Source: Naegleria gruberi
Lineage: Eukaryota
NCBI GenBank assembly: GCA_000004985.1
Contig: GG738900.1
Length of the DNA: 64,000 nucleotides
Reading direction: 5' to 3' (one strand)
This document shows positions 2,066 through 48,353 of the stretch, one piece after another; positions within the stretch are counted from its first letter, which is position 1; the number at the start of each line of letters is the position of its first letter. The position numbers and the translations under genes were made by a program. The notes below the pieces were generated by a model. It searched no databases, had not been told where the DNA came from, and worked only from the letters and a program-made list of their open reading frames with translations.

Positions 2066-2440
2066 ATGTCTTCTGCAATTGTTAAGAAGGAGCAAACCGC
2101 CCCAGAACAATCCACCAAGGAACCAATCCACAGAATCAGAATCACCTTGACCGCCAAGAACGTCAAGGCCCTCGAAAAGGTCTGTGCTGATTTCGTTAGA
2201 GAAGCCAAGAACAAGAAGGTCAAGAGAGTCAAGGGTCCAGTCAGAATGCCAACTAAGATTTTGAAGATCACCACCAGAAAGTCTCCTTGCGGTGAAGGTA
2301 CTAACACTTGGGACAAGTTCGAAATGAGCGTCCACAAGAGAGTTATTGATTTGCACGCTCCAGCTTCAACTGTTAAGGACATTACTTCCATCTCCATGGA
2401 ACCAAACGTTGAAATTGAAATTACCGTCTGTGACTTGTAA
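2066..2440 (+). CDS. rps20: 40S ribosomal protein S20 (uS10)
   Basis: Single-exon 124-aa ORF with a true ATG. Highly conserved uS10 motifs are present: [25 protein letters not shown]...[37 protein letters not shown]. Confidence 0.9.
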
Positions 2441-5342: not shown

Positions 5343-5465
5343 TAATTTATAATAATAAAGAATTTAATTGAAACTCTCTAGGTATCCCAACAACATCCAA
5401 ACAAAACACAAACAGATATATACCACTAACAGTCCATTAAGGATAAATATTCATAATGAATGTAT

Positions 5466-5537
5466 TCCCGTGTAGTCCAATGGCTAGGATACCTGGCTTT
5501 CACCCAGGAGGTCCGGGTTCAATTCCCGGCATGGGAG
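5466..5537 (+). tRNA. tRNA-Glu (anticodon UUC)
   Basis: 72-nt cloverleaf TCCCGTGTAGTCCAATGGCTAGGATACCTGGCTTTCACCCAGGAGGTCCGGGTTCAATTCCCGGCATGGGAG with anticodon loop CTTTCAC. It is followed by a T-run typical of a Pol III terminator. Confidence 0.85.
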
Positions 5538-5580
5538 AATACTTTTTAATGTTGATAAAACCAATTTTATTTGGTATTGA

Positions 5581-8698: not shown

Positions 8699-8933
8699 TT
8701 ACCCATTATGTGAAACCTTACTAATTTGAATTTGTCTTTATTTTGGATAAAGTATTGAAACTAGGAAGCTCAGCAAACTTCAACACTCTTCTTTTTATAA
8801 TTTTTAAAATGTATGCAATAATGTAGCAAGTACATGATATTTATGAAATTATAATTCCAATTTTCATTATTATTAGTAATTATTCCCATTTCTTTATTTG
8901 TCCATTAAGGATAAATTTTCAAAATAAATGTAT

Positions 8934-9005
8934 TCCCGTGTAGTCCAATGGCTAGGATACCTGGCTTTCACCCAGGAGGTCCGGGTTCAATTCCCGGCAT
9001 GGGAG
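8934..9005 (+). tRNA. tRNA-Glu (UUC), second identical copy
   Basis: Identical 72-nt sequence to the copy at 5466-5537. About 35 nt of upstream flank is also shared. Confidence 0.85.
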
Positions 9006-9091
9006 AATACTTTTTTAATTATGGACTTTTAATATTGTTAAAAATTAATTTTATGTTACCACATGAGGTATTGAATAATTTAGAATTTGCA

Positions 9092-10187: not shown

Positions 10188-10220
10188 TGTATGATTGTTT
10201 AAAAGTTATTAAGGTAAAAA

Positions 10221-10340
10221 GACTACAGCACCACAGGTTCCCAAGTTGTCTCCAACCTCAGTACTGATGTGGCTCGACGATGCTTACCTTCTCAAATCGG
10301 ACGGGATGAGATGCATTCATCGTGATATGGCCGTAGCCAT
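10221..10340 (-). rRNA. 5S ribosomal RNA gene
   Basis: The minus-strand sequence is (AT)GGCTACGGCCATATCACGATGAATGCATCTCATCCCGTCCGATTTGAGAAGGTAAGCATCGTCGAGCCACATCAGTACTGAGGTTGGAGACAACTTGGGAACCTGTGGTGCTGTAGTC followed by TTTTT. It matches the eukaryotic 5S consensus, including box A, the loop-C region and the ...GGTGCTGTAG 3' end. Confidence 0.9.
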
Positions 10341-18000: not shown

Positions 18001-18789
18001 TCTTTCACGCATCATTCAAATCTTGATATCATGTCATTTAACTATAATTGTTTAAGATTTGACATCCTGTCACATTTGTGGACAAATCAATCCATAACAA
18101 CAAGCATTTCTCCACAAACTAACTCCATTACATGCACAACTATATTCATTTCTTCAGTAGTTGTTCAAAGAACTTTAATCCCTTCACCATCAATCTCACC
18201 AAAACACTCATCAAATCCATTTCCATCAATTTCACATGAAAATTCAATTCCACTCCCAAGCGATGAGACAATTACATTGAATATCCAACCTGGAGAATCA
18301 ATTCTCTATCAAATAACTCTTCCATCCATGAAAAGACTTTCACTTTCGTGTAAAACAATTTCAGGAAGAGATTTAAATTTGTTTATTGGAGAAAATTTCA
18401 AACCGTCTTATGAAATGTACTCAAAAGTTATGAATTCTAATCAGGAAATGGATTTTGAAAATTGGAAGTCGATATACCAGGTGTTTTACATTCGAGTTCA
18501 AGGTTTGAAAGATTCAACAACTCAATTCACTATAAGAGCTTCAATTAGTCAACTGAGACAAGTGAATTCTTCGAGTGGAGCAAGAAATGATAATTACACC
18601 ATTGGATTAATCGTCTCAAGTGTTATTTCACTTCTATTATTAATCATTACCATCCTAACTGTTCTTAGTTGTGTTTTCTATTGGAGAAAGAAACGTAAAC
18701 TTATGGAAGAAACCAGAACGAAACTACTTTCAACTCCTAATTCGCTTCAGTATTCACCTCACCAACCGTATGAAATGGAGGAAGCATAA
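15061..18789 (+). CDS. type I membrane protein with a signal peptide, 12 NHL repeats, about 6 tenascin-type EGF-like repeats, a Ser/Thr-rich stalk, one TM helix and a short cytoplasmic tail
   Basis: The signal peptide begins at MNHKGFALLLVLTCLLFITIHP. Twelve units of the form (A/S)DxxNHRIRKI...TIAGTGxxGYNGDG are followed by repeated CxNxGxCxxNNTCxCxxGWxGxxCSQF(T/S)C. The TM helix is IGLIVSSVISLLLLIITILTVLSCVFYW. The track ORF starts 84 nt upstream at a non-ATG codon. Confidence 0.8.
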   Translation: MNHKGFALLLVLTCLLFITIHPIMTSEQIIRNLAGQGICDGHLSTNAPVNPSDCAFLDEEMLIADATNHRIRKVFTNGTIVTIAGNGFAGYNGDGLDATSAQLNNPVGIYVDTNSREVYIADSNNHRIRKILQNGKITTIAGTGIAGYNGDDKSADSAQLNTPSGIVIDPNNGEIFISDSKNHRIRKILQNGKITTIAGTGEAGYNGDGIEAKFAKLYLPNGIDLYEKELFIADQNNHRIRKVSLDTGLISTIAGNGNSGYNGDNILATNCKLSLPAGVRYDSKRREVYIADSNNQRIRKILESGIIVTIAGTGEAGFDNILNATQSKVNHPNSVTLNELGEVFISDSQNYRVRKITTESGIITTIVGNGFEKYCTDLASNTPLFYPRGIISNENGEFFYADSSNHCIRKILTNGTILTIAGTGTKGYNGDGIEATSAQLNTPHDVALNLATGEIYIADTENNRIRKILTNGTITTIAGTGDYGYNGDGIMAVDAWLNEPSGVEIDSTSGEVFFSDTENFRIRRVSNSGIITTIAGTGKSKFNGDGMATDTNLATPTEIQYVPSTTEIYFADSGNNRIRKFTINGMMTTIAGTSTSGYNGDNMPATRAWLNFPVGVTYDPKTNQVYIADLSNHRIRKILTNGTITTIAGTGKGGYNGNNLTALSTQVNGPHGMILQPNGDVIFSDSTNNVIRIIRSDQIYCNGTLSSDLNVCNGRGWCMESGKCSCQDGWIGDYCSEPTCENDCYGHGRCVSNNTCECEYGWDGNSHCSQFSCGGLNNCNSNGLCVSNNTCSCQSGWAGTDCSQFTCSGASNCSDHGSCISNNTCHCNSGWKGNAQCSQFTCELTNDCSNHGLCVSNNTCQCSSGWNFINCSIKECLISIVSGSRELICGNDNSSGQLKTFSRITTPVIETTSFELNENQHVNVDIGSRIMNLDLSQDKYFITSSWTNSNNLFFTNVSNLLIQNSGSSLIQAELSTKIKYSFTHHSNLDIMSFNYNCLRFDILSHLWTNQSITTSISPQTNSITCTTIFISSVVVQRTLIPSPSISPKHSSNPFPSISHENSIPLPSDETITLNIQPGESILYQITLPSMKRLSLSCKTISGRDLNLFIGENFKPSYEMYSKVMNSNQEMDFENWKSIYQVFYIRVQGLKDSTTQFTIRASISQLRQVNSSSGARNDNYTIGLIVSSVISLLLLIITILTVLSCVFYWRKKRKLMEETRTKLLSTPNSLQYSPHQPYEMEEA

Positions 18790-18843
18790 ACTATTGAACT
18801 GTTTTATAAACACAAATAGAATTTATTGTAAAAGTTTAAAAAA

Positions 18844-21309
18844 ATGTCTCAACACCAAGTTGATTTTACCCTCGCGGATCTTCCCACTGAAATTCATCAT
18901 ACAATTTTTTACTACCTCGATTATGTTCGTGATATTTGTTGTGATCAGTTATTGTATGTTCCGATGATTGAAATGCCATCAACATTGGAAGAATATGAAC
19001 GGAATTGTATTGATCATGGTGAACAGGAATTTATTGATTTTGATCATCCTAGTCGCGTGCCTTTCTTTTTAGCCTGTCAATCACTGCTGAAATCTGTAAA
19101 ATCATTCAGACCAATAGTTTTGAATTTAACACTACCATCAACAGAAAGGGGGCTCTGCAGATATTATTTGGACAAGTTATATATTGAAACATTTCAAAGA
19201 ACTCCTTGGTTTAGAAGAGCAAAACCTGCATATCATTTTAGTAGTTATGATTGGAATGACGCATTTAGAGCACTATTTGAAAGGATGAAAAAGCTTTGTG
19301 GTGGTCATCCTTTGTTTAAAGTGGAATTTGTATCAGTTGCTTGTATTGTTGGCAGAAACTATACCTCTTTTGAATATGCTTATCATGGAGGATTTAATTT
19401 ACACAAACTTATGGATCTAGTACCTAACCTTAAATATGCACTATTCGATTTCAACCCTTCATTAGTTTTATATGAAAGAAGTGAATCTTTGACCATTATT
19501 TATGCATCAAAGTCAGATTATTACCATTCAGCATTGGGACAAAAAAAGAACATTTACTTCTCATCCTTTGATTATGAAAGAAACCCAATAGTACCAATTG
19601 AAAAATTGAAAGGAGTATTTCCAAACAATTATCCAACAAATATTGAAATATTCCTCTACAATAGTATAGTATCAAATAATTTTAAGGAGGCAAAATATAT
19701 TATCAACAATTTTACTCTTAATGCTAATATATTTTCCTATATATGGAATACCAAATCTTACATGACACGAGAACTCAACTATTATAATCTTACACAAATT
19801 ATGGACATATTACATTTTTTTTACAAAAATTATCCATCTTTTAGAGTATTTAGAATTCCAATAGACAATATAGTATGCTTAAAACTAATTGTATCACAGC
19901 CATTTGTAGATATTCATGTTGGTAAGAATATTACCAAATTATTCCTAGAGAGAATGACTACTAAAGATGTTCAGGTACTATCTAGAGATTATAATGTTGA
20001 TTTTTCCAAACTTGGTAATTTCAAATTCTCTGCTAATTGTTTTTTAGAAACAAATTTACAAATAGAAAATACTTGTGATATTTTTGGTGTATCCACGGCT
20101 ATGTTTAGATTGGAAAGAGGCAGTAACATTATTGAGAAGGATAAGTTTGGAAATAATATCCTTCATTATATATTCTTGAATAGGAGAGGAAACAATTTAT
20201 CGCAATCTCTTTCAAAGTTTTCACAAGAGGAAATTAAATTACTTGGAAAAGAGCCAAACATTTTCGGTATCACTGCAAATGAACTAGCGCTTATTAAGGG
20301 ATGTGACTTTAAAATTGAAAGTTTTAATAAGAAATTCTGCTACGAGTCCTTTGGTAGAACCTGTGGCAGTTCAGATTTGCCTAGAATGTTACTATTTGAT
20401 GGATTAATGGTTAATGAACAAATCTATTGTGTATTTATGAATAATTTACAAACCAGTAGATATGATTATGATCAATATAGAGATATCAACTTTAGAGATG
20501 AAAATGGAAAGCATTTGGTTCACTATTCCCCAAATTGTTTTAGTGAAAACACAGAGTGTTTGGGTTTAGAATTGAAAGATATTATCTTTTGCAAAGATAA
20601 TAATCAAACAATGCCCATCCAAACATTTTACAATAGTTATCTTGTGGCTTTGGACAAGTTAGGACAAATTGAGAATATGCCCAAGTTGAACTTTTTTTCA
20701 TATACTGATAACTTTGGAATGTGTCGATATTTATATTTATTGATGAATTCCTATATTAATACTCAGTTATTGGTATCAGAAGCTGATACTATTGGATTTG
20801 ATTACTCTTCAGGTCAACCTGAACTTGTATCATTGTGTTCTCATTATTTGGATGGACTCTATCATTTTTCAATTGAAAAAAGCCCTTTGAAACAATTGAA
20901 AGGTATTAGATACTTTGGAAGTGTTGATGGAGATGATTTCTCACATTACGTATTGAGATATTATTTGGATTACATTAACAAAAACCCTACTTACTATCTA
21001 GACACTTCAACCCTCAAGGTTCTTATTGCTAGAGGACTAAAGTTTGATGTTGTTAGAAACTCACAAGGGCAAACAGCTTTTGATTTAATTGATCACTTAA
21101 CAGGGACGACACAATTGAAACATATGAAGAAAGTATGTAGAAAAGGCCGTACCACAAAATCCAAGGCATTACCCAAATTTACAATCAAACACAATCCAAT
21201 TCCAAAAGATGTTTTAATAGAGGATTCTGAAACAACACTTGTTGTTAAATCACAAAATGTTGCACCATTCCGTATTAGAATCAAACGCAGTTTAACATTT
21301 CACAAATAG
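18844..21309 (+). CDS. hypothetical 821-aa protein with an F-box-like N-terminus
   Basis: True ATG. The N-terminus LADLPTEIHHTIFYYLDYVRDI resembles the F-box LPxEI..xIF..L pattern. No family could be assigned to the rest. Confidence 0.5.
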   Translation: MSQHQVDFTLADLPTEIHHTIFYYLDYVRDICCDQLLYVPMIEMPSTLEEYERNCIDHGEQEFIDFDHPSRVPFFLACQSLLKSVKSFRPIVLNLTLPSTERGLCRYYLDKLYIETFQRTPWFRRAKPAYHFSSYDWNDAFRALFERMKKLCGGHPLFKVEFVSVACIVGRNYTSFEYAYHGGFNLHKLMDLVPNLKYALFDFNPSLVLYERSESLTIIYASKSDYYHSALGQKKNIYFSSFDYERNPIVPIEKLKGVFPNNYPTNIEIFLYNSIVSNNFKEAKYIINNFTLNANIFSYIWNTKSYMTRELNYYNLTQIMDILHFFYKNYPSFRVFRIPIDNIVCLKLIVSQPFVDIHVGKNITKLFLERMTTKDVQVLSRDYNVDFSKLGNFKFSANCFLETNLQIENTCDIFGVSTAMFRLERGSNIIEKDKFGNNILHYIFLNRRGNNLSQSLSKFSQEEIKLLGKEPNIFGITANELALIKGCDFKIESFNKKFCYESFGRTCGSSDLPRMLLFDGLMVNEQIYCVFMNNLQTSRYDYDQYRDINFRDENGKHLVHYSPNCFSENTECLGLELKDIIFCKDNNQTMPIQTFYNSYLVALDKLGQIENMPKLNFFSYTDNFGMCRYLYLLMNSYINTQLLVSEADTIGFDYSSGQPELVSLCSHYLDGLYHFSIEKSPLKQLKGIRYFGSVDGDDFSHYVLRYYLDYINKNPTYYLDTSTLKVLIARGLKFDVVRNSQGQTAFDLIDHLTGTTQLKHMKKVCRKGRTTKSKALPKFTIKHNPIPKDVLIEDSETTLVVKSQNVAPFRIRIKRSLTFHK

Positions 21310-21476
21310 CCTAGAAAATAATAAAATAAAGAAGTTCAGCAGAAACATCATATTGATAGATATCCAACAGGTGGTCTTACATCAGTATTAGCTGTTGATG
21401 AAAACAAAATGGGTTGGATTAACATTTAATTTGGCAGTTGACATTATTTCAATTAAGTTTTCTATTGGTTGAAAAT

Positions 21477-21697
21477 GACGGGAAGCCTGCCAGGAATATG
21501 ACGACAATCCCGCTACAGTCTTTGACTGTATGAACAGTGAAGGCAACGAAGACAGAATCTTGTTGGTTCAGGTTTTGTTTGAAGAAATTGTTAAAGTTGA
21601 TCAACCTCATATTTATTGAACATTTGTCATGTTGAAATGCATGATGCAAATTTTGGTTTCTCATATTCTGATCAATTCTAAATTGAAACTTCATTAT
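21477..21697. repeat. copy 1 of a ~230-bp conserved element of unknown nature (other copy at 44032-44270)
   Basis: The first ~70 nt (gacgggaagcctgccaggaatatgacgacaatcccgctacagtctttgactgtatgaacagtgaaggcaa) differs from copy 2 by 2 nt. The remainder is about 75-80% identical, with conserved blocks gttgatcaacct..tatttattgaacatt, tgatgcaaattttggtttc, tctgatcaa and attgaaacttca. Confidence 0.7.
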
Positions 21698-21716
21698 TTA
21701 CAATTTACTGAATTAT

Positions 21717-22004
21717 TTACAAGTTTTTAGATTTGGTAATTTTCTTAGTTGTGGTAGTAGATTGTTTAGCTCTCTTTTCAATTGAATTTTTAGAAGATCT
21801 TTTCACTGAAATTTGTTTACCATTTAAATTTGCATGATGATAATCAATATTATTACGATGTCTAGTTCCACTTATAATATTTGAAGTATCAATATCAAAT
21901 AATGGTAATCTTTTAGATAAATCAATTGGTTTAGATCTTGTCCATTCTGTTTTTGTTGGAATTCTATCTTCGGAAGAATGTGATGAAGTATTTCTAGCTG
22001 GCAT
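21717..22004 (-). CDS. small Ser/Asn/Thr-rich protein (95 aa), paralog of 22228-22443
   Basis: True ATG (MPARNTSS...). The motif DIDTSNIISGTRHRNNIDYHHANLNGK is shared with the divergently transcribed neighbour. Confidence 0.45.
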   Translation of the reverse strand: MPARNTSSHSSEDRIPTKTEWTRSKPIDLSKRLPLFDIDTSNIISGTRHRNNIDYHHANLNGKQISVKRSSKNSIEKRAKQSTTTTKKITKSKNL

Positions 22005-23780: not shown

Positions 23781-23856
23781 TTTTTTAAATGGCAGTACTC
23801 TATGAATCAACATTGATTTACCTAATAAAAAACCTTTATTTTTGAATTGTCAAAAA

Positions 23857-23976
23857 GACTACAGCACCACAGGTTCCCAAGTTGTCTCCAACCTCAGTAC
23901 TGATGTGGCTCGACGATGCTTAACTTCTCAAATCGGACGGGATGAGGTGCATTCATCGTGATATGGCCGTAGCCAT
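23857..23976 (-). rRNA. 5S ribosomal RNA gene (second copy)
   Basis: It differs at 2 positions from the copy at 10221-10340 and has the same minus orientation and the same T5 terminator. The flanks are unrelated to those of copy 1. Confidence 0.9.
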
Positions 23977-26663: not shown

Positions 26664-27441
26664 TTTATATGAGTTAAAAGTGTATTGATGAAAATGAGTC
26701 GACGCGGCAGGGGCACAATCGAAATATTTTTTTTGATTTAATTTTTATGATGCGATGCAAGTCTTCATCGAAGCAAGCAACAGCAGCAGAAGAAGAAGTA
26801 TCAATCTCATCCATCTGCTTGGTTTTTTACGGTGTGGCTGATGATGACAAATAGCAAAACAACTTTCGTGCTCGGTGGTTTTATCAAAAATGTTGGAACA
26901 ATGCACCGAGAATAAGAATCACCCACTCTTACTAATAAGAAAATACGATCCGTTGCTACCAGCCTTCTCAATACAAGTCAATCAATTTGGTGCACGTGTG
27001 TCTCAAGGTAAGTAGCCGACAGTTTGGTTCTTGGTGAGCAACAGCAAGCAACTTGAACATTGTAAGGAATTCTGGTCAACCTACCAATACTATTTATTGT
27101 CTACTAATGAAGTTGTTAGTGTAATAATTCCCTCAGATAGCAACAGTATTAAAGTCAATTCTCCATTATTTTGATTGAATGTAGAGTGTATTACTGAATC
27201 AAGAGATTTTTCATTGGAAAAACCGAAAAATACACATCAGACGTTATCATACATTGTAAACATGAGGGCTCGATCAAGAAAATTCCTTCGTATCGTTAGG
27301 AATACCTTCTATTAACAGTAATAAGGAATTCATCTTACAATTAAGGTTCACTTTCAGAGAAGAATTCTATTTTTAGATAAGAGAACTGAAAAACAGATTA
27401 AAATTCGAAAATGATGTAAACAATTAAAATTAATTAAAAAA

Positions 27442-29329: not shown

Positions 29330-31597
29330 ATGCCATCATCAAAAGAAGAACGAAAATCTTCATCATCAAAAATTGCCGATAAACCTAAATATGAATTGCT
29401 CACAGACAAGGACTTTAAGAGAGCAGAACAATTAACTGAGGAAAAAAAGCTACAAGATAAAGATTTTCAAGACAAGGAAAAGAAACAAAGAAAGGAAAGA
29501 AATGAATTCTTGTTTAAAAAGACCAAGAATTTGTTAAAAACCTACGAGAAATCTAAATTTTATCAAAAGACGAAACTTTTAACAAATGATGCACTTGATA
29601 AGTATAAAAGAAAGAGTACAATCGATGAAAAACCAATCCCTAAAAGGGAGATGGCATTCTACCAATATAAAAACAAATTAGCTAACAAACAAGAAGTTTC
29701 AAGGAATATCCTTTGGACTGATGTCGATCGTTCGAAAGCTGAAGCAAGATTGGCTAGATCCGAAGTTTTGAGAACCAAAGAAAATGAAGAAAGAGGTATT
29801 GAATTGGATGATAGTGATATTTACTCTAAAACATATCAACTTTCACAGGAAGCAATTTTGAAGGATGTAGATGAAAATACTAGAAAGAAAATATTTGATA
29901 TTGAACTTACACAATATTCACCGTATAAGATTCAATATAGTTTGAGTGGTAGAAAATTACTTTTGGGTGGTGTGAAAGGTCACATTTCAACATTGGATTG
30001 GAGAAAATTTGAAATGCTTCATGAAAATCATTTCAGTGAACCATGTAAGGCAGTTCAATGGTTGATGGATGATGGCATGTATGCTGTTGCTCAATCACCA
30101 TTTACCTATGTTTATAATGAACAAGGTGTAGAAATTCACATGTGTAGAGATTTCCATAAGGTTGAATTCCTTTCTTACTTACCTTTCCATTATTTACTTG
30201 TTGGTGCTAGTAGACAACAAAATTTACCAACAGGAAATAGTGGTCAAATCATTTTCAAGGATATTTCATTGGGTGAAAACGTATCAACAGTTAAATTAGA
30301 TCCAATTTCATGCATGACACCAAATCCATATAATGCTGTTATGTGTGTTGGTCATTTGAATGGTACTGTTTCAATGGTATTACCTCGTGATAAGGATTAC
30401 AAACCAGTCGTTTCCATGTTCTGTCATCAAGCTCCAATTAAACATTTGGCAGTTGATCCAACAGGTCGTTATATGGTTACAAGTGCTGCTGATGATAAGG
30501 TTAAAGTTTGGGATATTAGAAATACCTATCAACCATTGACAACAGTTGATACTCTTGAACATCTTAATCAAATTAGACCAAAGAATGGCGATCATATTAC
30601 TTCTATGGCTGTTTCACAATCGGGAATGGTTGCTGTTTCACTTAAACATACAGTAGCAATATGGAAGAATTTGACTCACATAAATCAAGCTGATAAGGAA
30701 ATTTACTTGCTTCACAAGATGCCAAATCATACCACAGTTTCAGATTTATCATTCTGCCCATATGAAGATATTCTTGGTGTTGGTCATTCTAGAGGATTCA
30801 GTAGTTTAATTGTTCCAGGTTCTGGTTCAAGCTCTTACGATTCTAGAATGCCTAATCCTTACTTTACTGATAAACAAGTTAAGGACTTTAACGTGAGAAC
30901 CTTGCTTGAAAAGATTCCATATGAAATGATTTGTTTGGATCCAACAGTGATTGGTACATCAGGTATGAGAGAAAAGGATCACTCCTACTCATCTCAAGTT
31001 GAAATCTCAGAAGAATTGAAACAAGAATTGAGCAGAGTTGGTCTCAAGGAAGAAGAAAGAAAAGAAGCTGAAAAGAGAAAACGTTTAACCTCAAGAGATC
31101 AATACAGAGAAGAACTCTTTAACAAATATCAAGAAATGAAAGCAGCCATACCAAAGAATTGGTATGATGAAGAAGATGCTGATGCTTTGGATCGTTTTGC
31201 CTCATTAAAGAAGAGAAAGATAAAGTACGACGAAAAGAAGAGAGAAGATACTCGAAAGCAACAAGAACAAACTGAAGAATCAGATAGAGTCAAACAATTG
31301 AAGAGACAATTGAGTGGCGATGATTCTGGAGATGAGGAAGAATCATCTGGTGATGAAGACGAAAATATGCTCAAATTATCATCTTCAGGAAAGAAGAAGC
31401 AACAAGAAGGCGACGAAGATGATGAGGAACAAGACGATGAAGAACAAATGGACAATCAAGCTGATGACGACGAAGATGAGGAAGAACAAGAAGACGACGA
31501 AGACCAACAAGCAAACATTTCAGAGGAATCTGATGATTACGAAAGCGATGAAAGTGAGGAAGAAGACACCAACTCAATAATTGATCCATTCGCATAA
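29330..31597 (+). CDS. WD-repeat protein WDR46 / UTP7 (BING4), a small-subunit processome component
   Basis: Extensive identity to human WDR46 across the WD and BING4CT regions. Examples: GGVKGHISTLDWRKFEMLHE.. against GGRKGHLAAFDWVTKKLMCE.., and PNPYNAVMCVGHLNGTVSMV against [20 protein letters not shown], plus VDPTGRYMVTSAADDKVKVWDIRNTYQPL and LLEKIPYEMICLDP. The N-terminus is K/E-rich and the C-terminal tail is acidic. Confidence 0.85.
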   Translation: MPSSKEERKSSSSKIADKPKYELLTDKDFKRAEQLTEEKKLQDKDFQDKEKKQRKERNEFLFKKTKNLLKTYEKSKFYQKTKLLTNDALDKYKRKSTIDEKPIPKREMAFYQYKNKLANKQEVSRNILWTDVDRSKAEARLARSEVLRTKENEERGIELDDSDIYSKTYQLSQEAILKDVDENTRKKIFDIELTQYSPYKIQYSLSGRKLLLGGVKGHISTLDWRKFEMLHENHFSEPCKAVQWLMDDGMYAVAQSPFTYVYNEQGVEIHMCRDFHKVEFLSYLPFHYLLVGASRQQNLPTGNSGQIIFKDISLGENVSTVKLDPISCMTPNPYNAVMCVGHLNGTVSMVLPRDKDYKPVVSMFCHQAPIKHLAVDPTGRYMVTSAADDKVKVWDIRNTYQPLTTVDTLEHLNQIRPKNGDHITSMAVSQSGMVAVSLKHTVAIWKNLTHINQADKEIYLLHKMPNHTTVSDLSFCPYEDILGVGHSRGFSSLIVPGSGSSSYDSRMPNPYFTDKQVKDFNVRTLLEKIPYEMICLDPTVIGTSGMREKDHSYSSQVEISEELKQELSRVGLKEEERKEAEKRKRLTSRDQYREELFNKYQEMKAAIPKNWYDEEDADALDRFASLKKRKIKYDEKKREDTRKQQEQTEESDRVKQLKRQLSGDDSGDEEESSGDEDENMLKLSSSGKKKQQEGDEDDEEQDDEEQMDNQADDDEDEEEQEDDEDQQANISEESDDYESDESEEEDTNSIIDPFA

Positions 31598-35981: not shown

Positions 35982-36756
35982 TTGTTTTTTCTAAAATTAT
36001 GATTAAATACAGTGATGCAGACGATTCCTTTGAATGTGATGTATTTTTTTATATTGTTCTAACGTTTAATTGTTGATTGATTACAAGTAATATTAAGAGT
36101 TGAATAATATGGTATGAATTATTGGTTGTTTCACATTCCATGACTCAATAACAAAATATTATAAGCAAGTGAGAGAAAGCAGATAAGATCCATTCTCCAA
36201 TATTTGAAATGGATAATGACCCTTTTCAAAACGTAGAACACATGGATAACCACAATTTCAAATTGCAAAGATGAATTTCAACAACAATTGGTTGTAATTT
36301 AAATCCTTCCTTATCAGAAAGTTATTAGACACTAATCAATTCTCATCATTTCAAAGTAAACAAATACAATTCAATCTAATACCTTATTCTTTTAGTTTCC
36401 CCATCAATTATGTTCTTCATTAAATTGGATTCAAAGCTGGTCCTTTCCTCATTTGATGATTATGATGACGACCAAGGCAGCATTATTTTGCTTTCATCCC
36501 GAAGTTGAATTTTTTGAAAAAATATTTGAACTCAAAATCAAGCAAAATAGGACAAGAAAACGCTTTTTTCAATAGAGAGCAAGAATTTAGCTCGTCAGCA
36601 GAGTTGTTTAAATTTATAATATTATTGAAAATATTGTGATATATAATTTATTTTGTTATTATTATTATTAGTGCGAGATAGTTGGTAAACTGCTATTTAT
36701 ATGATAACCAACAACAACAACAATATAAGACTGTAGAATTTTTATTAACCGCAAAG

Positions 36757-38427
36757 ATGCAGTTAAATCTTAACTATTTTGTGAGAGTGTTTATGCTCAA
36801 ACTGTGGTTTTTAATTTTCAATTATCCACTTTCTCTACTTACGGCCATCCTTTCCATGATGATAATTTATAGAGCTTCACAGAAGAAGAATTCGCCTCTT
36901 CCTCTCGATAAAAGATTACCTATTGAAGATAGTAGTAGTGGTACAACACTTGGATCATCAGGAATAGGTTCTCTTATATCTAATTCTGTTAATTCTGTTG
37001 CTGATGTAACAACAGTGACTTCTTCATCTAATAACAACAACAACAACAACTGGTCGGCCACAGTTGCTTCAATTTATAGTTCTTCATCTGATGATGAAAC
37101 GGAAAAACCAACATCAAGATTTACTAGTTTTATTAATTATTTCTGGGGAGGAGGAAAAACTCATCACAACGTTGATGACAATATCAGCACAACAAGTACA
37201 TCATCAGAAAATTCAACAATCTCCCCAGCTGATGGTAATCATATGTATTCCATGTTTGATAATGTTGATTCTAATGATCCAAACCAAAGTAATCTTTTAC
37301 GATGTCCTCCTAAATTATTAGAAGATCCAATGAAGTTGTTGGGAAGAACTGTCTTGATGGTAGGAGGTTGTTGTGAAGGTGTAGGATATGAAATTGCTTA
37401 TGCACTTGCACAGTTAGGTGCTAGAAAGGTTGTTTTAGCTTGTGCAAATGAACATGAAGCCCAAGAAGCAATCGAGAAAATGACAGATATTAGTCGAGGA
37501 GTTGTTGAATTTATGCATCTAGATTTATCTTCCATTCAAAGTATACGTCAATTTGTTAATTTCTATCAAAATGTTATGAATTATGAGTGCCACGTCCTAG
37601 TTAGTACTGTTCTTTGCACAAGACAGAGTAACATGGGAAAGAACACTTCTAATAATAACAGTAGTAGACAATTACAAAACCAATTTATTGGTCCTAGATT
37701 TACCAAAGATGGTTATGAAAAAAACTTCCAACTCAATTATTTGGGAAGAATTATTCTTATTGATATGATGTCGGATATGTTAAAGAGAAATCATACAAGG
37801 GTTGTTAATGTTGTGGAAATATTAAGTGAATCCCTTAAACAACAAAAACCTATGAAAATGATACCTAACTCTGATTTGAATGCTAGTACATTCAAGAAAG
37901 CATATACTGAACAAGACTATTTTAATTACTCTATGAGATGTAATTTATTATGGATTAAAATGTTTGCAAAGAAATATCAACAAGATGGTGTGACAATTTG
38001 TTGTTGCGACCCTGAACTTCCTGGAACCTACAAACCTCCAATTCCTGATATTATTAATCAACCTACCTCTACTTCCTCACTTCTTTCAGATCCATATTTT
38101 ATGGATCCAAACTCACATGATGTATTGTCAATCACTAATGAATACGCTGAAGAAATTACCAATTTTGATAAGATACAAAGTTTACTTTATGGGTCACTAT
38201 GTGATAAGCAATATTTTGAAAATGGTGCCTACATAACGAATTATAGAACTAAAAAACTTCCTTCCTCCTATTCGAATAAGAAAGATATGGAGCTGAATTG
38301 GGAACAAACAGCTTCACTCGTAACAGAGATACAGAGTTCTGTCATTTCTCAACACTCCTCTCCTTCAATCAGTGTTAATTCTTCTCCTACCCTTCCCATC
38401 CCTTCCTCCTCTCAGAACGAACCATAA
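36757..38427 (+). CDS. atypical short-chain dehydrogenase/reductase-like protein with an N-terminal TM segment and Ser/Asn-rich linker
   Basis: A Rossmann-like stretch VLMVGGCCEGVGYEIAYALAQLGARKVVLACANEHEAQEAIEKM...VEFMHLDLSSIQSIRQFV follows the SDR pattern, with GGCCEG in place of TGxxxG. The track ORF begins at 36682 on a non-ATG codon; the first in-frame ATG is at 36757. Confidence 0.5.
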   Translation: MQLNLNYFVRVFMLKLWFLIFNYPLSLLTAILSMMIIYRASQKKNSPLPLDKRLPIEDSSSGTTLGSSGIGSLISNSVNSVADVTTVTSSSNNNNNNNWSATVASIYSSSSDDETEKPTSRFTSFINYFWGGGKTHHNVDDNISTTSTSSENSTISPADGNHMYSMFDNVDSNDPNQSNLLRCPPKLLEDPMKLLGRTVLMVGGCCEGVGYEIAYALAQLGARKVVLACANEHEAQEAIEKMTDISRGVVEFMHLDLSSIQSIRQFVNFYQNVMNYECHVLVSTVLCTRQSNMGKNTSNNNSSRQLQNQFIGPRFTKDGYEKNFQLNYLGRIILIDMMSDMLKRNHTRVVNVVEILSESLKQQKPMKMIPNSDLNASTFKKAYTEQDYFNYSMRCNLLWIKMFAKKYQQDGVTICCCDPELPGTYKPPIPDIINQPTSTSSLLSDPYFMDPNSHDVLSITNEYAEEITNFDKIQSLLYGSLCDKQYFENGAYITNYRTKKLPSSYSNKKDMELNWEQTASLVTEIQSSVISQHSSPSISVNSSPTLPIPSSSQNEP

Positions 38428-38778
38428 AACCCAATTTTCAACAAGTGAAAGAATCAATTATTTTATTAATCATCATCTACAGTAATCAATTTTTCGAAGA
38501 AGAAACAATAGATTTGCGTTTTTTGTCTTGTTCATGGAAGTACAAGAATGTCCACTTTACAAAATTTCCTTCTTATTCAAATACGCACCATCAACAAGTT
38601 CATCAGAGGAAGATAACAAGGTAAACAACGTGTTAAAAATGTGTGGCTTCTCTGTGTTTACTTTCGCTGGCGTTGTCAAAATTGTTCTATAAATACATCC
38701 GTACAAAAAACACATGGTAAAAAAAATGTTCAAAACAACACCGTACCTATTAACAACAGCACACAACATCTCCCACCA

Positions 38779-39894
38779 ATGTCCTTCATTCACTACAATC
38801 CACTGGATGGAACTTCACCAAAGAAGAAGCAATTAACATTGGATGAACTGAAGTCCGTTCTTCACTTAAGCCAAGAGCAAGCTGCTAAAGTACTTGGTAC
38901 ATCTTCTTTCAAACTTCGCTCTTTATTCAAGAAGCATAGAGAGGAGCTTTCTATGGTTAGATGGCCAACACAAAAGGCTAGACAACAAATGCTAACCAAT
39001 AACAACAACAACAACAACATCATAGTGAAGGAAGAAGAAGAATTTCCTAGAGATGAAAATGACTTTCCAATCTTTAAAAAATCTCTCATATACAAGCAAC
39101 AAATCAAAAAGGGCAATAATCCATTCACTTCTATTGAACCTAAAATATTATATCTTCCTTCTCCACTTGAAAATAATCAACATAATGTTAACCATGAATC
39201 AATTTATTCCGGTTATACAGATGATGATAAGATTTTCACCTTTAACAAATATGAACTACAAGATTTCTTACATTTTTTGGAAATGAAAAGATTGGAAAAG
39301 GATATTTGTGATCGTATGATTGGTAGAGTAGCAAATGGATTCAAGAAAGTTGTATTCTGTATGCCAGTTTCAAAGTGTACCAGAAATGTATTTACCAGTT
39401 ACTTTGATATGTATGGAGAACATTGTACAATTAGAAGTAGAAAGGTTCTTGGATACGATTCTATTGGCTGTTTTACAAAAAGAAATGTTTCAAGATATGT
39501 GTTTGAATTTCCATATTTACCAACATTCGGAAATGGACGATGGACTTTGAATCAATATAGTTTAGATAATAATAATTATGAATCGGAATTTGAAGATGGG
39601 GAAGGAATAACAATATTCAACGATTCTACATCAACAACAAGTAGTACATCATCAAATGATTTCAGTTTTCCAGTTATCGAAGACAATGATTATTCATTTT
39701 TAGGAGAGGAGTTGAATGAGTTTAATGAACATTGCAATAGACAATTGGAATTCATGGAAGGATGGGATCATGTTCGAAACATGGTTTATAGATTAAGTGT
39801 TTCTCATAATTCAATCACTCAACTGGTTACAGTTTCATTCGGAATGATTTCTTTGAAGTTGTGGTATGATGGAACCTATAAAGAAACATTTTAA
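38779..39894 (+). CDS. RWP-RK domain protein (NIN-like transcription factor family)
   Basis: LTLDELKSVLHLSQEQAAKVLGTSSFKLRSLFKKHREELSMVRWPTQK matches the RWP-RK domain consensus (I.L.DL...F.L....AA..LGV..T.LK..CR..GI.RWP.RK). First in-frame ATG is at 38779. Confidence 0.65.
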   Translation: MSFIHYNPLDGTSPKKKQLTLDELKSVLHLSQEQAAKVLGTSSFKLRSLFKKHREELSMVRWPTQKARQQMLTNNNNNNNIIVKEEEEFPRDENDFPIFKKSLIYKQQIKKGNNPFTSIEPKILYLPSPLENNQHNVNHESIYSGYTDDDKIFTFNKYELQDFLHFLEMKRLEKDICDRMIGRVANGFKKVVFCMPVSKCTRNVFTSYFDMYGEHCTIRSRKVLGYDSIGCFTKRNVSRYVFEFPYLPTFGNGRWTLNQYSLDNNNYESEFEDGEGITIFNDSTSTTSSTSSNDFSFPVIEDNDYSFLGEELNEFNEHCNRQLEFMEGWDHVRNMVYRLSVSHNSITQLVTVSFGMISLKLWYDGTYKETF

Positions 39895-40002
39895 TAAAGT
39901 ATAACATTTAATCTATCACTTCTATACCATCATTATCACTTACATCAACAAGTTCAACAATAACATTAATCAACTTCAACTTCTGATTCACCTAACAAAG
40001 TA

Positions 40003-40051
40003 TTTTTTGACCCTGCAGTAAAAATAAAAAATTTATTGCAGGGTCAAAAAA
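40003..40051. promoter_or_regulatory. perfect 15-bp stem / 19-nt loop hairpin (ttttttgaccctgca ... tgcagggtcaaaaaa) ending 1 nt before the ATG of the downstream gene
   Basis: The inverted repeat was read directly from the sequence. Two PstI-type ctgcag sites lie in the arms. Confidence 0.6.
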
Positions 40052-40693
40052 ATGCTTAAACAACCCAAACGCAAAAAACAAAAACAGGACCATCAAAACA
40101 CAACTTCATCAATAACAACATCAACCCCAACAACATCAACAACAACAACAACAACTTCATCGATTAGAAAGTGTATTGTTAATTGTATCAATAATCAAAT
40201 ACACTTTTCTAAATCGGAAACACTAGTAACTTTATTAAAAGATTCAATGAATAAGAAGGAGTCATCAAATGAAATTTGTATTGTTTGTAAAAACGGAACA
40301 CCAGATAGTCATAAAGTTAGACCCTATGATCATTTTAAACCACATTCTAAAAAGATTATTAAATTATCAAATAATATTCCTATTAAATCTATTAATAATT
40401 ATGATGAGTTAATTAAAGAAATGATTAGTAATAATTTTGCTAAATTTAAGAATAATAATAATATTATTGAACAATATAATGATTATGTTAATACTAAATT
40501 ACAATTAAATGATGAAGAAAAAGAATTAATATTTACAAATAATTTTTTTAACAAATTTAATTTTAAACATGATAGGCTCGATACTTTAGATTATTTACAT
40601 AAAATTAATACACTACAACAAAAAATTAATACAGCTATTTGTCTTCAAATTCTTTTAAAGAATTTTGTTTCGAAGATAAAAAATTCTGAATAG
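40052..40693 (+). CDS. hypothetical Asn/Thr/Lys-rich 213-aa protein
   Basis: True ATG. The protein is low-complexity (TSSITTSTPTTSTTTTTTSS, NNNN). No family recognised. Confidence 0.4.
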   Translation: MLKQPKRKKQKQDHQNTTSSITTSTPTTSTTTTTTSSIRKCIVNCINNQIHFSKSETLVTLLKDSMNKKESSNEICIVCKNGTPDSHKVRPYDHFKPHSKKIIKLSNNIPIKSINNYDELIKEMISNNFAKFKNNNNIIEQYNDYVNTKLQLNDEEKELIFTNNFFNKFNFKHDRLDTLDYLHKINTLQQKINTAICLQILLKNFVSKIKNSE

Positions 40694-41134
40694 TTTCATG
40701 TAGAATTCCAATATCATCAAATAATAATACTTCATTTGTTTCATTAGAAGTTCTTTCTTTCAAATTTGGTAAAATAATATTATCCTTAAAAAAGTAAAAT
40801 ATTTTAAATCCAGTTATTACTAAATGAATATTAAATAATTGACGTTTAAAATCAGTAGTATCTGAATGTAAATGAGAGCCATTAGTTGAATCTGTAGATA
40901 TCCATAGATCAGTCCATTCAGTACATAATTTAGAATCTTTAATTAATGGTGAAATGGACTTGAATTATGTATTGTTGGACCTGGCCAAAGTATTGTGTTT
41001 AAAGAACATGTTCCTCATGGAACCTTTAATTGGGGTCCTATTACAATAAGTTTTGGACAAACTTATTTTGGAAATGAAATTGAAAAATTGATTTTCAATA
41101 AGAATCCAAATGATATTTCTTTATTGATTCAGGA

Positions 41135-41746
41135 ATGTGCAATTTAAGTAATTATTTGTGGAGAAGTGATGATGATAAGCAAGTTTCAATTATAGAAAGA
41201 ACTCCTATGAAAAGTTCTAAAGTTAATGAGTCATTTATTATTGATTGCAGCCCGCCAACAACAGTTCTTCTTAACAAACCAAGTACCACTACCATAATTC
41301 CAACCAGTGACGAAACTTTGGTAAATAGATCTCCATCAACCAAAAGAAAAGTAGATGCAATTAATGTGAAGGAATTATCAAAGAAAGCTGTTAAAGCTAT
41401 CAAGACAGATAATGAACAAAACGATTATACTATGTCAGAAACTTCATTACTTTTACAAGAATTAACAGATATTCTTTCAGATAGAGAAGAAAGAGATGCT
41501 TTAAAAAGAAAAGTTGAGCTAGAAGAAGGTTTTTATGAGTATTGTATGCAATTTTATCAAAAGATTATTACAGAAAATAAGAAAAAGATGGAATTGTTAG
41601 AAAATCAATTCGGTGAAATAGAGGCATTATCTATTGAAGTATCTTCCTATATCACTAAAAGACGAGAGAAACTAGAAATACAAGATAAAATAGAACACGC
41701 TGCTATCAAAGAAGAATTGAAAAAGCTTTTTGCAGAAGAAAAATAA
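41135..41746 (+). CDS. hypothetical coiled-coil protein; upstream exons may exist in 40700-41134
   Basis: ORF-track frame. The C-terminal half is K/E-rich heptad-like sequence. An exon-like 63-codon open frame with no ATG (..GPGQSIVFKEHVPHGTFNWGPITISFGQTYFGNEIEKLIFNKNPNDISLLIQ) lies just upstream at about 40954-41145. Confidence 0.4.
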   Translation: MCNLSNYLWRSDDDKQVSIIERTPMKSSKVNESFIIDCSPPTTVLLNKPSTTTIIPTSDETLVNRSPSTKRKVDAINVKELSKKAVKAIKTDNEQNDYTMSETSLLLQELTDILSDREERDALKRKVELEEGFYEYCMQFYQKIITENKKKMELLENQFGEIEALSIEVSSYITKRREKLEIQDKIEHAAIKEELKKLFAEEK

Positions 41747-41756
41747 ACTATTTTCA

Positions 41757-41815
41757 TGACTTTACATTTATTTACATTTATTTACGTTTATTTACATTTA
41801 TTTACGTTTATTTAT
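41757..41815. repeat. minisatellite (tttacRttta)n, about 6 units
   Basis: tttacatttatttacatttatttacgtttatttacatttatttacgtttattta, read directly from the sequence. Confidence 0.8.
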
Positions 41816-42037
41816 ATCAAATAATTACAAATAGTAATGTCTTTTTAAGTTTATTTACGTTTATTGAAATATTAACGTTTATTTATATATATTACTATTT
41901 GTTGAATAAATTAACAGTATTTATTATTAATAAAACCTAGTTTAATGTTTAATCATAATGAAGCAAACAATTTGTATTAAATAATAATCATTTGATACAT
42001 AATAATACATAATCTTCCGGCATGGAATAATAGGTGC

Positions 42038-42068
42038 CTGCAGTATTTATTTTTAAAATACTGCAGGT
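42038..42068. promoter_or_regulatory. perfect 12-bp stem / 7-nt loop hairpin cctgcagtattt-atttttа-aaatactgcagg, about 70 bp upstream of the ATG at 42137
   Basis: Read directly from the sequence. The stem shares the cctgcag core with the hairpin at 40003-40051. Confidence 0.6.
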
Positions 42069-42136
42069 ATTAATTATCAGCCGAGTTTTTTTGCACAGCC
42101 ATCGCTGGGAGGTTTTTACCACCCTCTCATTTTAAC

Positions 42137-42916
42137 ATGTCAAACACCACAGAATCAGACAAACTTCACAATGATGAAGCAGTGTGCGTCTCGTCATCCG
42201 ATGAAGAAGAATTTATCAGCAAGGATAAGCAAAAAGGTCACAAGGGAGTATTTATTGAAATCGGAGAACGTATGAAAAGATATGAAGCCAATCAAGGATT
42301 ATTCTTGGATGAAACCAAGCCGTATATGGCCAGATTGGATGGTCATAAATTCTCAACATTTGCTCGTCCATTTAGGTATGTAATGATATGAATTGATTGT
42401 ATTAAATTAATTCTTGATATTCAGAAAGCCATATGATAACTTGTTGCATGCAGTCATGGTTCAAACAGCTGCTGATCTGTGGAACAATTTAATGATGNNN
42501 NNNNNNNNNNNNNNNNNNNNNNNNNNNNNNNNNNNNNNNNNNNNNNNATTTGGGCAGCATTCTATTCTACCAAGGAAATGCATGGATTGAAAGCTCGTCA
42601 AGTTGTTGAGAAATTGAAAGAGGATAAGAATGTTGATTGGAATGATTATCCAATGGGTTATCGTTACGGAACTTTTATTAAAAAGTCAAAATACGAAAAG
42701 AATGTCAAGAATCCAAAAACAGGTGAAGAATTGGTGTGTATGAGAACTAAATCAGAAGCATTTTCATTCAAATTGGAAGATTTCGATTCAAAATATATTG
42801 AATTGTTTAATCTCAAGACATGGAATGAAGTTTTTGAAAAGGGAATTTTGAATAGAGATGATTTAATTCTTGAGCCATTGTTTAGTGATTTGTTGGCTTC
42901 AGATAACAAAGAATAA
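42137..42916 (+). CDS. tRNA-His guanylyltransferase (Thg1)-like protein, 2 exons, interrupted by an assembly gap
   Basis: Exon 1 (42137-42375) encodes ..PYMARLDGHKFSTFARPF, matching Thg1 VVRLDGRNFHRFAEKH. A 49-nt intron follows. Exon 2 from about 42425 encodes RKPYDNLLHAVMVQTAADL, then after the gap IWAAFYS..GLKARQVVEKLKEDKNVDWNDYPMGYRYGTFI, matching Thg1 [40 protein letters not shown]. N-run at 42498-42547. Confidence 0.65.
42498..42547. other. assembly gap (N-run) inside the Thg1-like gene
   Basis: Contiguous run of N. Confidence 0.95.
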
Positions 42917-42964
42917 AGTTTCGAATAAATCTCCTTTTCAATATTAAAAAAATAGATCTGAAAA

Positions 42965-43909
42965 ATGGCTCAATTGACCGAAGAAGATTCACAAGTAATT
43001 GTTAATTTAATTAATTTTGATCACTCCCCCAATTCATTGTTTGATCAATTAAAAATTCAACTACGAAATTATAAGAAATTTGTACCATTTTCCATGAATT
43101 TTGAAGAGGTTGCGAAAATAACACCAATTTCCAATTTAATGTGTCATGTTAAAGTCTCACCATCACATCATTGTCTATGTGTGTCTGATACAGAAGACAA
43201 CATAAAGAAAATTAAGTTTTTTGAATTGACAAGCTTGCGATATTTAACAAGTTTTAAACATCTTACACCTGTTGACAGTTTGTTTATCGAGGAAAACTTT
43301 GATGGCCAACACAATGATGCAATTTATTTTGGAGAATTTGGGGGCATGACAAAGTACAGAGTTAAAGACTTGTTGATTTTGGGAGAAAATGCACAGTTTT
43401 TATGGAAAATTGAAAAGAAATACAGGTTTGGAATGGCAATAAGAGAAATTGGAAATAAGAAACAATTATTCAGATTTGCTGGCGTTTCCAGAACAATGGA
43501 TATAATAGATGCTGAGGAGGGTAAAATTATTGCTGAGATGGATTTTGAACATATTCACAAGGTGTTTGGAATTGAATTTATTACTCCAAAGCGATTGTTT
43601 ATATCATGTCTGGATGGAGATTGTTGTATATTTGATGAAGAAACAGAAAACAAATGGAAACTCTTTAAAATTATTCAAAGTGTGGATGATATTCGCCTTA
43701 AAGACTCTGCTGGATTAACAGTTGACTATTTGGGTAAAAAGATATTCCTCTCCAATACTGGAAGAATTATAATCTTTGATTTTGATGGAGATGTAGTTGG
43801 CTCATACAAGGCAGATATTAAAGTTCCTTGTGGTCTTGATTTTGACAAGAGAACTGGCCTTCTTTATGTTGCTGATCAATTATCCAATTCCATTAAAATT
43901 TTCAAGTAA
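42965..43909 (+). CDS. hypothetical protein with an NHL/SMP-30-like beta-propeller C-terminus
   Basis: True ATG. The C-terminal segment GRIIIFDFDGDVVGSYKADIKVPCGLDFDKRTGLLYVADQLSNSIKIF resembles an NHL blade. Confidence 0.45.
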   Translation: MAQLTEEDSQVIVNLINFDHSPNSLFDQLKIQLRNYKKFVPFSMNFEEVAKITPISNLMCHVKVSPSHHCLCVSDTEDNIKKIKFFELTSLRYLTSFKHLTPVDSLFIEENFDGQHNDAIYFGEFGGMTKYRVKDLLILGENAQFLWKIEKKYRFGMAIREIGNKKQLFRFAGVSRTMDIIDAEEGKIIAEMDFEHIHKVFGIEFITPKRLFISCLDGDCCIFDEETENKWKLFKIIQSVDDIRLKDSAGLTVDYLGKKIFLSNTGRIIIFDFDGDVVGSYKADIKVPCGLDFDKRTGLLYVADQLSNSIKIFK

Positions 43910-44031
43910 AGTTACAAATATTTACATTTGACTTGATTTCTTTTCACACTTTGTAGTTGTGTGAAATGAAGAATATAACGATTGGTTAATCAAGTAGTGT
44001 GATATTTGTAACATTTCAATTGTTAATTTTG

Positions 44032-44270
44032 GACGGGAAGCCTGCCAGGAATATGGCGACAATCCCGCTACAGTCTTTGACTGTATGAACAGTGAAGGCA
44101 AGAGTTCTGGACGAATCTTGTTGTGTTTAAATAACAGGTTGTTGAGGAAATTCAATAGGTTGATCAACCTTGTATTTATTGAACATTGATTCGCTGAATT
44201 GCTTGATGCAAATTTTGGTTTCATATTTTCTGATCAAATCTAAACTAAATTGAAACTTCAGCTTATTGGA
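44032..44270. repeat. copy 2 of the ~230-bp conserved element (see 21477-21697)
   Basis: See copy 1. It has the same orientation and the same position relative to its neighbours: about 120 bp downstream of the stop codon of a plus-strand gene. Confidence 0.7.
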
Positions 44271-48040: not shown

Positions 48041-48146
48041 ATCTTTACCCGTAACAAATAAATCAATTAAACAATTCGTTCACTCTTAATATCATTAATT
48101 TTTAGCCATTTCCAAATCCTTTTAGTCGGTTGGCAAAGAAAACAAA

Positions 48147-48235: not shown

Positions 48236-48353
48236 TTACATGCATCAAAAAAATTATAAAAACCTGTGCTAAAGCAACACATGTCAAACTTTCTTCAAAA
48301 ATTTTCCACTTGAAGTTCAATTAGACATTAGACTTGAAAAAAAAGGCTTTACA

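Follow-up and report, generated by a model that had tools for sequence, protein, structure and literature searches.

Known spliced-leader (SL) RNAs are ~150 nucleotides (nt) or less in length and carry their splice donor in the 3' strand of a hairpin, while the Class I RNAs of dictyostelids are 42-65 nt long and have a 5'/3' terminal stem. The Sm-class small nuclear RNAs (snRNAs; U1, U2, U4, U5 and U7) cover a size range of ~60-230 nt, and the U3 small nucleolar RNA (snoRNA) is ~220 nt long. We compared these RNAs with an element that occurs twice, as copies A and B, in a 64,000-nt stretch of Naegleria gruberi DNA (contig GG738900.1 of assembly GCA_000004985.1), the whole of which is called the window here. 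A previous reading of the window from its letters alone, the sequence-only reading, had offered a structured non-coding RNA (ncRNA) gene family, a shared 3' exon or untranslated region (UTR) and a mobile repeat as candidates for this element. In our reading each copy is probably an independent gene for a structured ncRNA of ~220-230 nt, belonging to a family of Naegleria and Willaertia that lies outside Rfam, and we put the probability of this at roughly 0.6. The more general claim, that the element is a structured RNA gene, is well supported by sequence comparison.

The element resembles the Sm-class snRNAs in its size, in forming a small multigene family with its own upstream element, in the T4 runs in its body, and in having a scaffold that varies more than its conserved 5' functional module. 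Close to its 3' end it is predicted to share their single-stranded A-U4-GG tract, with one terminal hairpin after it. Unlike these RNAs, it matches no snRNA covariance model at E <= 10, lacks the U1 ACUUACCU, the U2 GUAGUA, the U5 loop 1 and the U4/U6 pairing segments, and has a homolog in Willaertia in which the Sm-like tract is imperfect. With the Class I RNAs it shares restriction to one protist lineage as a small multigene family, a short conserved motif on a stem, a conserved upstream element that may be a promoter, and a function that in their case was long unknown. The Class I RNAs, however, are far shorter, have no sequence similarity to the element and come from unrelated organisms.

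Two copies in the window and homologs near Vps39

Both copies were present on the plus strand and in the same orientation, as had been reported, and their alignment refined several details. Similarity between them ends at ACTTCA, which sets the units at 21477-21693 and 44032-44260 instead of the previous ends at 21697 and 44270. Over the first 70 nt the sole difference is at nt 25 (A in copy A, G in copy B), where two differences had been counted. Identity over the remainder, previously given as 75-80%, was 73% with gaps counted and 88% over aligned bases, and all five of the perfectly conserved islands quoted by the sequence-only reading were found in both copies. At 100-300 nt outside the units the flanks aligned at ~55%, and because this value was the same upstream and downstream it was taken as background. 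The 24-nt start of the element (GACGGGAAGCCTGCCAGGAATATG) occurs exactly twice in the window against 0 occurrences expected from 100 shuffles, and a BLASTN search of the window returned these two copies and no more; a covariance model of the 5' block likewise found no third copy there. Each copy was said to lie ~120 bp after the stop codon of a protein gene, which is correct for copy B (122 nt) but not for copy A (167 nt), and the two upstream genes are unrelated to each other. Copy B is 480 bp upstream of the start of the Vps39 gene, on the same strand.

The Vps39 gene that follows copy B at a short distance specifies a protein with 100% identity to its annotated N. gruberi counterpart, and an ortholog of copy B was found on L001, a metagenome contig of a very close relative whose coding DNA is 97-99% identical. 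When the loci around Vps39 orthologs from four other lineages were compared, a homolog was present only in Willaertia magna (L006), where it sits between two genes of opposite strand. That the element is linked to Vps39 in both genera, and with the same orientation, speaks for a stable gene. The element was absent from ~65 kb around the Vps39 orthologs of N. lovaniensis, N. fowleri and a third, environmental Naegleria lineage, in all of which an adh_short gene directly adjoins Vps39. A pattern scan of metagenomes returned three loci, all of them chance matches within a coding-like region of apparently bacterial contigs, and scans of a prokaryote genome collection and of viral contigs gave no match. 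Look-ups of the N. gruberi 314-aa protein, the E2 enzyme, RPS20 and the paralogs P0002/P0004 for transcripts or syntenic contigs returned no record.

Compensatory substitutions in the 5' block

The first 64 nt of the Naegleria and Willaertia sequences align without gaps and differ at 17 positions. Ten of these differences make up five compensatory base-pair changes, three in hairpin 1 and two in hairpin 2 (Table 1). The pairs concerned are (3,36), (9,29) and (11,27) in hairpin 1, together with (41,51), which changes from A-U to U-A, and (42,50), which changes from G-C to C-G, in hairpin 2, where all cells are paired. Among 20 pairs tested, five were changed on both sides and 88.8% of cells were paired, and neither value was reached in any of 500 shuffles, while sliding the 3' partners by 1-3 columns lowered pairing to 21-41%. 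In a simulation that used only the 12 pairs of a simpler two-stem model, 17 random substitutions gave at least three compensatory pairs with p ~0.003. On this comparative evidence, the 5' 54 nt are shown to fold into two hairpins that have been kept by compensatory substitutions. The perfect hairpin acagtc-ttt-gactgt, which had already been recognized in the letters of the window, is present and is supported by two of the five pairs.

The apical part of hairpin 1, CCAGGAAUAUGG (CCA-GGAAUA-UGG), is identical in three of the four sequences; in copy A, the A at nt 25 breaks one of its three apical pairs. Within the linker that ends the 70-nt block, UGAAC.GUGA is invariant between the two genera. 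A helix that closes the molecule by pairing the linker with the 3' end is tentatively predicted in both, between UGAAG (nt 62-66) and CUUCA in Naegleria and between GGUGAGUGAA and UUCAUCACC in Willaertia.

Constraint, composition and the 3' part

Relative to the close relative on L001, identity fell from 100% over the 5' block to 95% over the middle and 91% over the 3' part, and was 90% in the upstream spacer and 61-72% in the downstream intergenic DNA, which is full of indels. The large indels begin right after ...CUUCAGCUUA, which places the 3' end of the constrained unit at that position. These sequence comparisons show that constraint on the 5' module far exceeds that on the two thirds lying 3' of it. 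Selection on the 5' block, suggested previously from its uneven conservation, is upheld by its complete identity in the close relative, where the flank reaches only 61-72%, and by the five compensatory pairs. The 5' block also has a G+C content of ~50%, compared to 33% for the genome, which is similar to that of transfer RNA (tRNA) and 5S ribosomal RNA (rRNA) genes. Sixteen intervals of the window hold a 70-nt stretch of at least 50% G+C, comprising three tRNA genes, two 5S genes, the two copies of the element and nine others. Four of the nine were inspected, of which three clearly overlap long open reading frames (ORFs), namely an RPS20-like gene, a glycine-rich gene and another ORF, and the fourth (26989-27058) is outside the range of the listed ORFs.

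In the 3' part, the Sm-like site AAAUUUUGG is identical in copies A and B and in L001, and a predicted terminal hairpin lies directly 3' of it. In Willaertia the hairpin would be formed by GGUUUUC and GAAAAAC, with one extra pair on each side; since its sequence is invariant within Naegleria, the support for it is modest. The RNA also contains AGGTTGATCAACCT (21592-21605 and 44155-44168), a perfect 14-nt palindrome in copy B and L001 with one mismatch in copy A, and at the aligned place in Willaertia there is a different palindrome, TTGTTAACAA. The internal palindrome may form a small hairpin, or may serve for dimerisation or as a protein site.

Table 1 Positions of the element, its predicted parts and its upstream motifs. 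Coordinates are those of the window unless L001 or L006 is given.
Feature	Copy A or other locus	Copy B	Strand	Basis or remark
Copy A, RNA gene, ~217 nt, GACGGG...ACUUCA	21477..21693		+	Alignment with copy B; covariance-model score 99.8 bits
Copy B, RNA gene, ~229 nt		44032..44260	+	Alignment with copy A; covariance model
Ortholog of copy B	L001:4990-5215			94.8% identical to copy B
Willaertia magna homolog, diverged	L006:6903 to ~7118		Same as Vps39	~2.9 kb upstream of Vps39
Hairpin 1, irregular, RNA nt 3-16 paired with 23-36	21479..21512	44034-44067	+	
Hairpin 1 apical loop, GGAAUA	21493-21498		+	
Hairpin 2, UACAGUC-UUU-GACUGUA, 7 bp, nt 38-54	21514..21530	44069-44085	+	
Conserved linker UGAACAGUGAAGGCAA, end of the 70-nt block	21531..21546	44086-44101	+	
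Sm-like site AAAUUUUGG, within the perfectly conserved island UGAUGCAAAUUUUGGUUUC	21648..21656	44210-44218	+	Read from sequence
3' terminal hairpin, GGUUUC...GAAACU	21655..21690	44217-44257	+	Predicted in three Naegleria sequences
Upstream motif TTTCAATT	21447-21454 (-30 to -23)	44014-44021	+	
TTTCTATT, variant of TTTCAATT	21459-21466 (-18 to -11)		+	
Distal upstream motif GGTTGGATTAAC (copy B, GATTGGTTAATC)	21412..21423	43980-43991	+	Common to A, B and L001

A candidate small nuclear-type RNA

The five compensatory pairs, the constraint on the 5' block and the tRNA- and 5S-like G+C content bear out the structured ncRNA gene family that had been among the first candidates. The best reading of these data, we infer, is an independently transcribed small nuclear-type RNA of a new family, and we think it most likely that a small nuclear or nucleolar ribonucleoprotein (RNP) has it as its RNA component. 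That it belongs specifically to a previously undescribed Sm-type nuclear RNP of vahlkampfiid amoebae is a tentative proposal, less probable than the gene itself and likelier than an SL RNA. When three sequences were searched against Rfam, a check that had also been recommended, no family reached its gathering score, and the only matches at E <= 10 were weak noise resembling C/D snoRNAs, microRNAs, long non-coding RNAs and CRISPR repeats. Text searches of the literature for the element sequence, and for Naegleria together with snRNA, snoRNA, spliced leader or minor spliceosome, found no description of such an RNA.

In the mechanism that we propose, transcription would start at or just upstream of the G of GACGGG, driven by the short upstream element TTTCAATT, with RNA polymerase II as the likely enzyme. 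The long irregular hairpin of the 5' module presents the invariant GGAAUA loop on its CCA/UGG stem, accompanied by the 7-bp hairpin with the UUU loop. The 3' part would act as a scaffold, in which the U-rich single strand AAAUUUUGG and the terminal hairpin resemble the site of Sm-core assembly on snRNAs, and the apical loop and the linker UGAAC.GUGA may form the recognition surface for an RNA or protein partner.

Several observations weigh against this interpretation. The main weakness is that the covariation comes entirely from one species contrast, Naegleria versus Willaertia. The 3' half is only ~47% identical between the genera, for which reason the Sm-like site and the terminal hairpin are tentative assignments; the aligned place in Willaertia (L006:7074-7083) reads AAUAUUGUGG, an imperfect version of the Sm-like site, and alternative folds pair part of this tract. 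The folding energy of the whole molecule is ordinary, with z = -0.47 for copy A and -1.74 for copy B. The window shows no enrichment in complements of the conserved loop and linker, and no target complementary to the loop was found there. The other Naegleria loci that were compared have no homolog, which may indicate either that the family is patchy or simply that those loci lack the element.

Other explanations

A set of alternatives, in which the element is an exon, a repeat, a divergent U3 or an SL RNA, is less likely than an independent gene for a structured ncRNA. That it encodes a peptide or is an exon is barely credible, although the ATG-less frame REACQEY(D/G)DNPATVFDCMNSEG is open in both copies, as previously noted, and its Willaertia version WEINQEYGNQPTTLFESMNGE differs mostly by conservative replacements, while a second, 11-codon frame, M(T/A)TIPLQSLTV*, has equal length in both genera. 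The REACQEY frame is preceded immediately by a stop in copy A and by no AG acceptor in Naegleria, and in Willaertia it ends at a stop after 21 codons. The single change between the paralogs in 70 bases is non-synonymous, while the neighboring sequence has diverged by 27%; substitutions fall on the codon positions as 9/2/6 and 2/6/9, which gives no significant codon periodicity, and four of the six changed codons of the 11-codon frame are radical replacements. The longest antisense ORFs of A and B do not share a frame across the conserved block, and none of 5.8 billion proteins matched the joined open frames at E <= 10. There is no conserved reading frame. A shared 3' exon or UTR is not supported either, as the upstream genes are unrelated, the Willaertia element lies between opposite-strand genes and there is no conserved or ATG-initiated frame. 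A mobile or repeated DNA element, such as a short interspersed nuclear element (SINE) or a miniature inverted-repeat transposable element (MITE), or a regulatory module acting as DNA, is highly improbable. It would account for two dispersed copies, for the resemblance to terminal inverted repeats that arises because the upstream TTTCAATT is the reverse complement of AATTGAAA near the 3' end, and for hairpin 2, which is palindromic as DNA too. The inverted motifs, however, are not at the limits of similarity, and the copies have no target-site duplication and no A-tail. Neither the window nor ~65 kb of other Naegleria DNA has a further copy, and the place beside Vps39 is common to another genus, so the SINE or MITE of the sequence-only reading is not supported. 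Symmetric changes in both arms of three separate helices are predicted by RNA pairing and would be unexpected for a protein-binding site.

Among RNA classes, a highly divergent U3-like or other box C/D processing snoRNA, whose 5' domain would pair with pre-rRNA and whose 3' part would carry C'/B/C/D kink-turn boxes, is unlikely. The islands conserved in N. gruberi do follow the U3 order (UUGAUCA, UUGAAC, UGAUGC, CUGA, terminal stem), C/D snoRNAs are among the weak Rfam hits (snoZ194, E = 0.11), and the length, the two gene copies and the far better conserved 5' domain resemble U3, in an RNA that starts with GAC. The UGAUG- and CUGA-like boxes that had been pointed out are real in N. gruberi, but they are degenerate and are not conserved in the Willaertia homolog, which has no CUGA and no UGAUGA on the plus strand. 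Boxes A and A' are absent, including the near-universal box A sequence GGAUCAUUUCUAUAG, and no U3 model matched any of the three sequences at E <= 10. Duplexes of the hairpin-1 loop with a generic 18S 5' end were no better in Naegleria than those of shuffles (p = 0.28-0.48), and the match in Willaertia uses a non-conserved segment. An SL RNA or its relic in Heterolobosea, with the 5' block as a mini-exon trans-spliced from GUAUGA (nt 52-57) or GUGAAG (nt 61-66) onto a subset of mRNAs and an Sm site downstream, is very unlikely. This would fit SL RNAs of Euglenozoa, nematodes and others in the hyperconserved 5' block with a remainder that varies among paralogs, in the Sm-like site and 3' hairpin, and in GUAUGA, a sequence invariant in both genera that is placed in hairpin 2, on its 3' strand, and is similar to the donors of window introns, GUAUGU/GUAAGU; the window moreover has long same-strand gene runs with spacers down to 55 bp, and the Euglenozoa, sister group of Heterolobosea, use SL trans-splicing universally. 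Were it true, the origin of SL trans-splicing would predate the Heterolobosea/Euglenozoa split and the picture for Discoba would have to be revised. In contrast to known SL RNAs, however, the element has ~217-229 nt, and its putative leader carries an AUG (nt 22-24) opening the 11-codon frame, which would do harm to each mRNA that received it. In an acceptor check of listed upstream regions, about half of them preceding an ATG-initiated ORF, most had an A-rich leader that runs straight into the start codon without a pyrimidine tract and AG acceptor, which is indirect evidence. The sequence at nt 61-66, GUGAAG in Naegleria and GUGAGU in Willaertia, lacks in the former the +5 G of local introns, and a text search found no report of trans-splicing for Naegleria. 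Finally, an unrecognizable spliceosomal snRNA, as a candidate for N. gruberi U1, is extremely unlikely. The Sm-like site with one 3' hairpin is the layout of U1, U4 and U5. N. gruberi was among the genomes that needed an extra unfiltered U1 search in a 2008 screen; that extra search rescued only two other species, and the U1 of N. gruberi was evidently not found (PMC2396436). Since local introns use GUAAGU/GUAUGU, U1 needs ACUUAC near its 5' end, and the element does not have it. Loop motifs for U1-70K and U1A are absent on direct reading of the element, and no snRNA model matched the three sequences at E <= 10.

Other families were rejected by reading the sequences against known motifs, together with the lack of Rfam hits. 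The CR-I-like GGGAAGCC of RNase P/MRP is not conserved in Willaertia and has no 3' partner strand. A ribozyme like that of hepatitis delta virus would need a P1 starting at nt 1, whereas here P1 does not start there, no P1.1 is possible and a U is in place of the catalytic C. A selenocysteine insertion sequence was rejected because TAG and TAA are the stop codons of the upstream genes and because the copy in Willaertia is outside any 3' UTR. The Alu domain of the signal recognition particle, the histone stem-loop or U7, 7SK and the hammerhead were dropped on the same grounds. Telomerase RNA was also dropped, as the element has no CCCAAA-type template tract; the candidate N. gruberi telomere repeat is TTTGGG (PMC3622300).

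Flanking motifs and transcription

The upstream motif TTTCAATT is retained in copies A and B and in L001 amid changing DNA, and Willaertia has CTTTCACTT at L006:6887. It lies 11-19 nt upstream of the initial G in copy B and L001, and its conservation suggests that it may be a proximal promoter element. It is also the reverse complement of the conserved 3' sequence AAAUUGAAA, and the complementarity could reflect either a terminal helix of a longer precursor or chance. The predicted UGAAG/CUUCA helix competes with this pairing. The distal upstream motif shows no enrichment elsewhere in the window, and the evidence from its sequence for a functional element is weak.

The body of the element contains T4 runs, a point against RNA polymerase III, and it is not followed by a T-run. 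The neighboring 5S genes, in contrast, end in T5, and on this difference RNA polymerase II is the likely enzyme. The sequence TTATT(T/C)ACAA(G/T) recurs just downstream of the units (21688-21725, 44290-44320 and L001:5216-5235), with a tandem arrangement behind copy A and one or two occurrences behind copy B and its ortholog, and is absent in Willaertia. It may be a signal for 3'-end formation.

Other features of the window

The window contains two dispersed 5S rRNA genes, each with a terminal T5, at 10220-10338 (-) and 23856-23974 (-), the second 2.2 kb downstream of copy A. 5S genes are found in the Willaertia locus (L006:18585-18703) and at L005:174-292 as well. Two genes for tRNA-Glu(UUC) with identical scores lie 3.5 kb apart at 5465-5538 (+) and 8933-9006 (+), and a gene of 91 nt for tRNA-Thr(UGU), which probably contains an intron, is just downstream of Vps39 at 48146-48236 (-). 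An intron-less ribosomal protein S20 (uS10)-like gene at 2066-2440 (+) is one of the few G+C-rich islands. The BING4/Utp7-type WD40 protein encoded at 29330-31597 (+) belongs to the U3-containing small-subunit processome, which indicates that N. gruberi possesses the machinery in which a canonical U3 would act.

In Vps39, a separate frame (44740-45051; region 44740-45075) encodes the N-terminal ~100 residues, and an internal Met is the first residue of the annotated N. gruberi protein. When N. lovaniensis is compared, two frame changes within ~40 nt seem likelier at this N-terminus than an intron, which points either to an assembly error or to a mis-annotated or decaying N-terminus. Runs of N, representing assembly gaps, are present at 846-914 and 42498-42547, and the second interrupts the ORF at 42479-42916.

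Genes on the same strand form runs at 11735-32495 (~9 large ORFs) and 36682-56382 (~11), with very short spacers, such as the 55 bp from 18789 to 18844, and with A-rich leaders that run directly into the ATG. Two perfect or near-perfect intergenic palindromes at 40009-40045 (GACCCTGCAG...CTGCAGGGTC) and 42037-42067 (CCTGCAGTATTT...AAATACTGCAGG) have a CTGCAG core and an A/T-rich center, and each shortly precedes the start of a gene. They may belong to a small repeat family or act as 3'-end or terminator hairpins.

Significance

Hardly any ncRNAs are catalogued for free-living excavates, and N. gruberi serves as a reference genome in the study of early eukaryote evolution. The unannotated element would be either the RNA of a lineage-specific RNP or an essential RNA, such as a processing snoRNA or an snRNA, that has diverged beyond the reach of current models. 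In both cases it would improve the annotation of Naegleria, including that of the pathogen N. fowleri if a copy exists there, and a concrete RNA is now available for testing a role in RNA processing.

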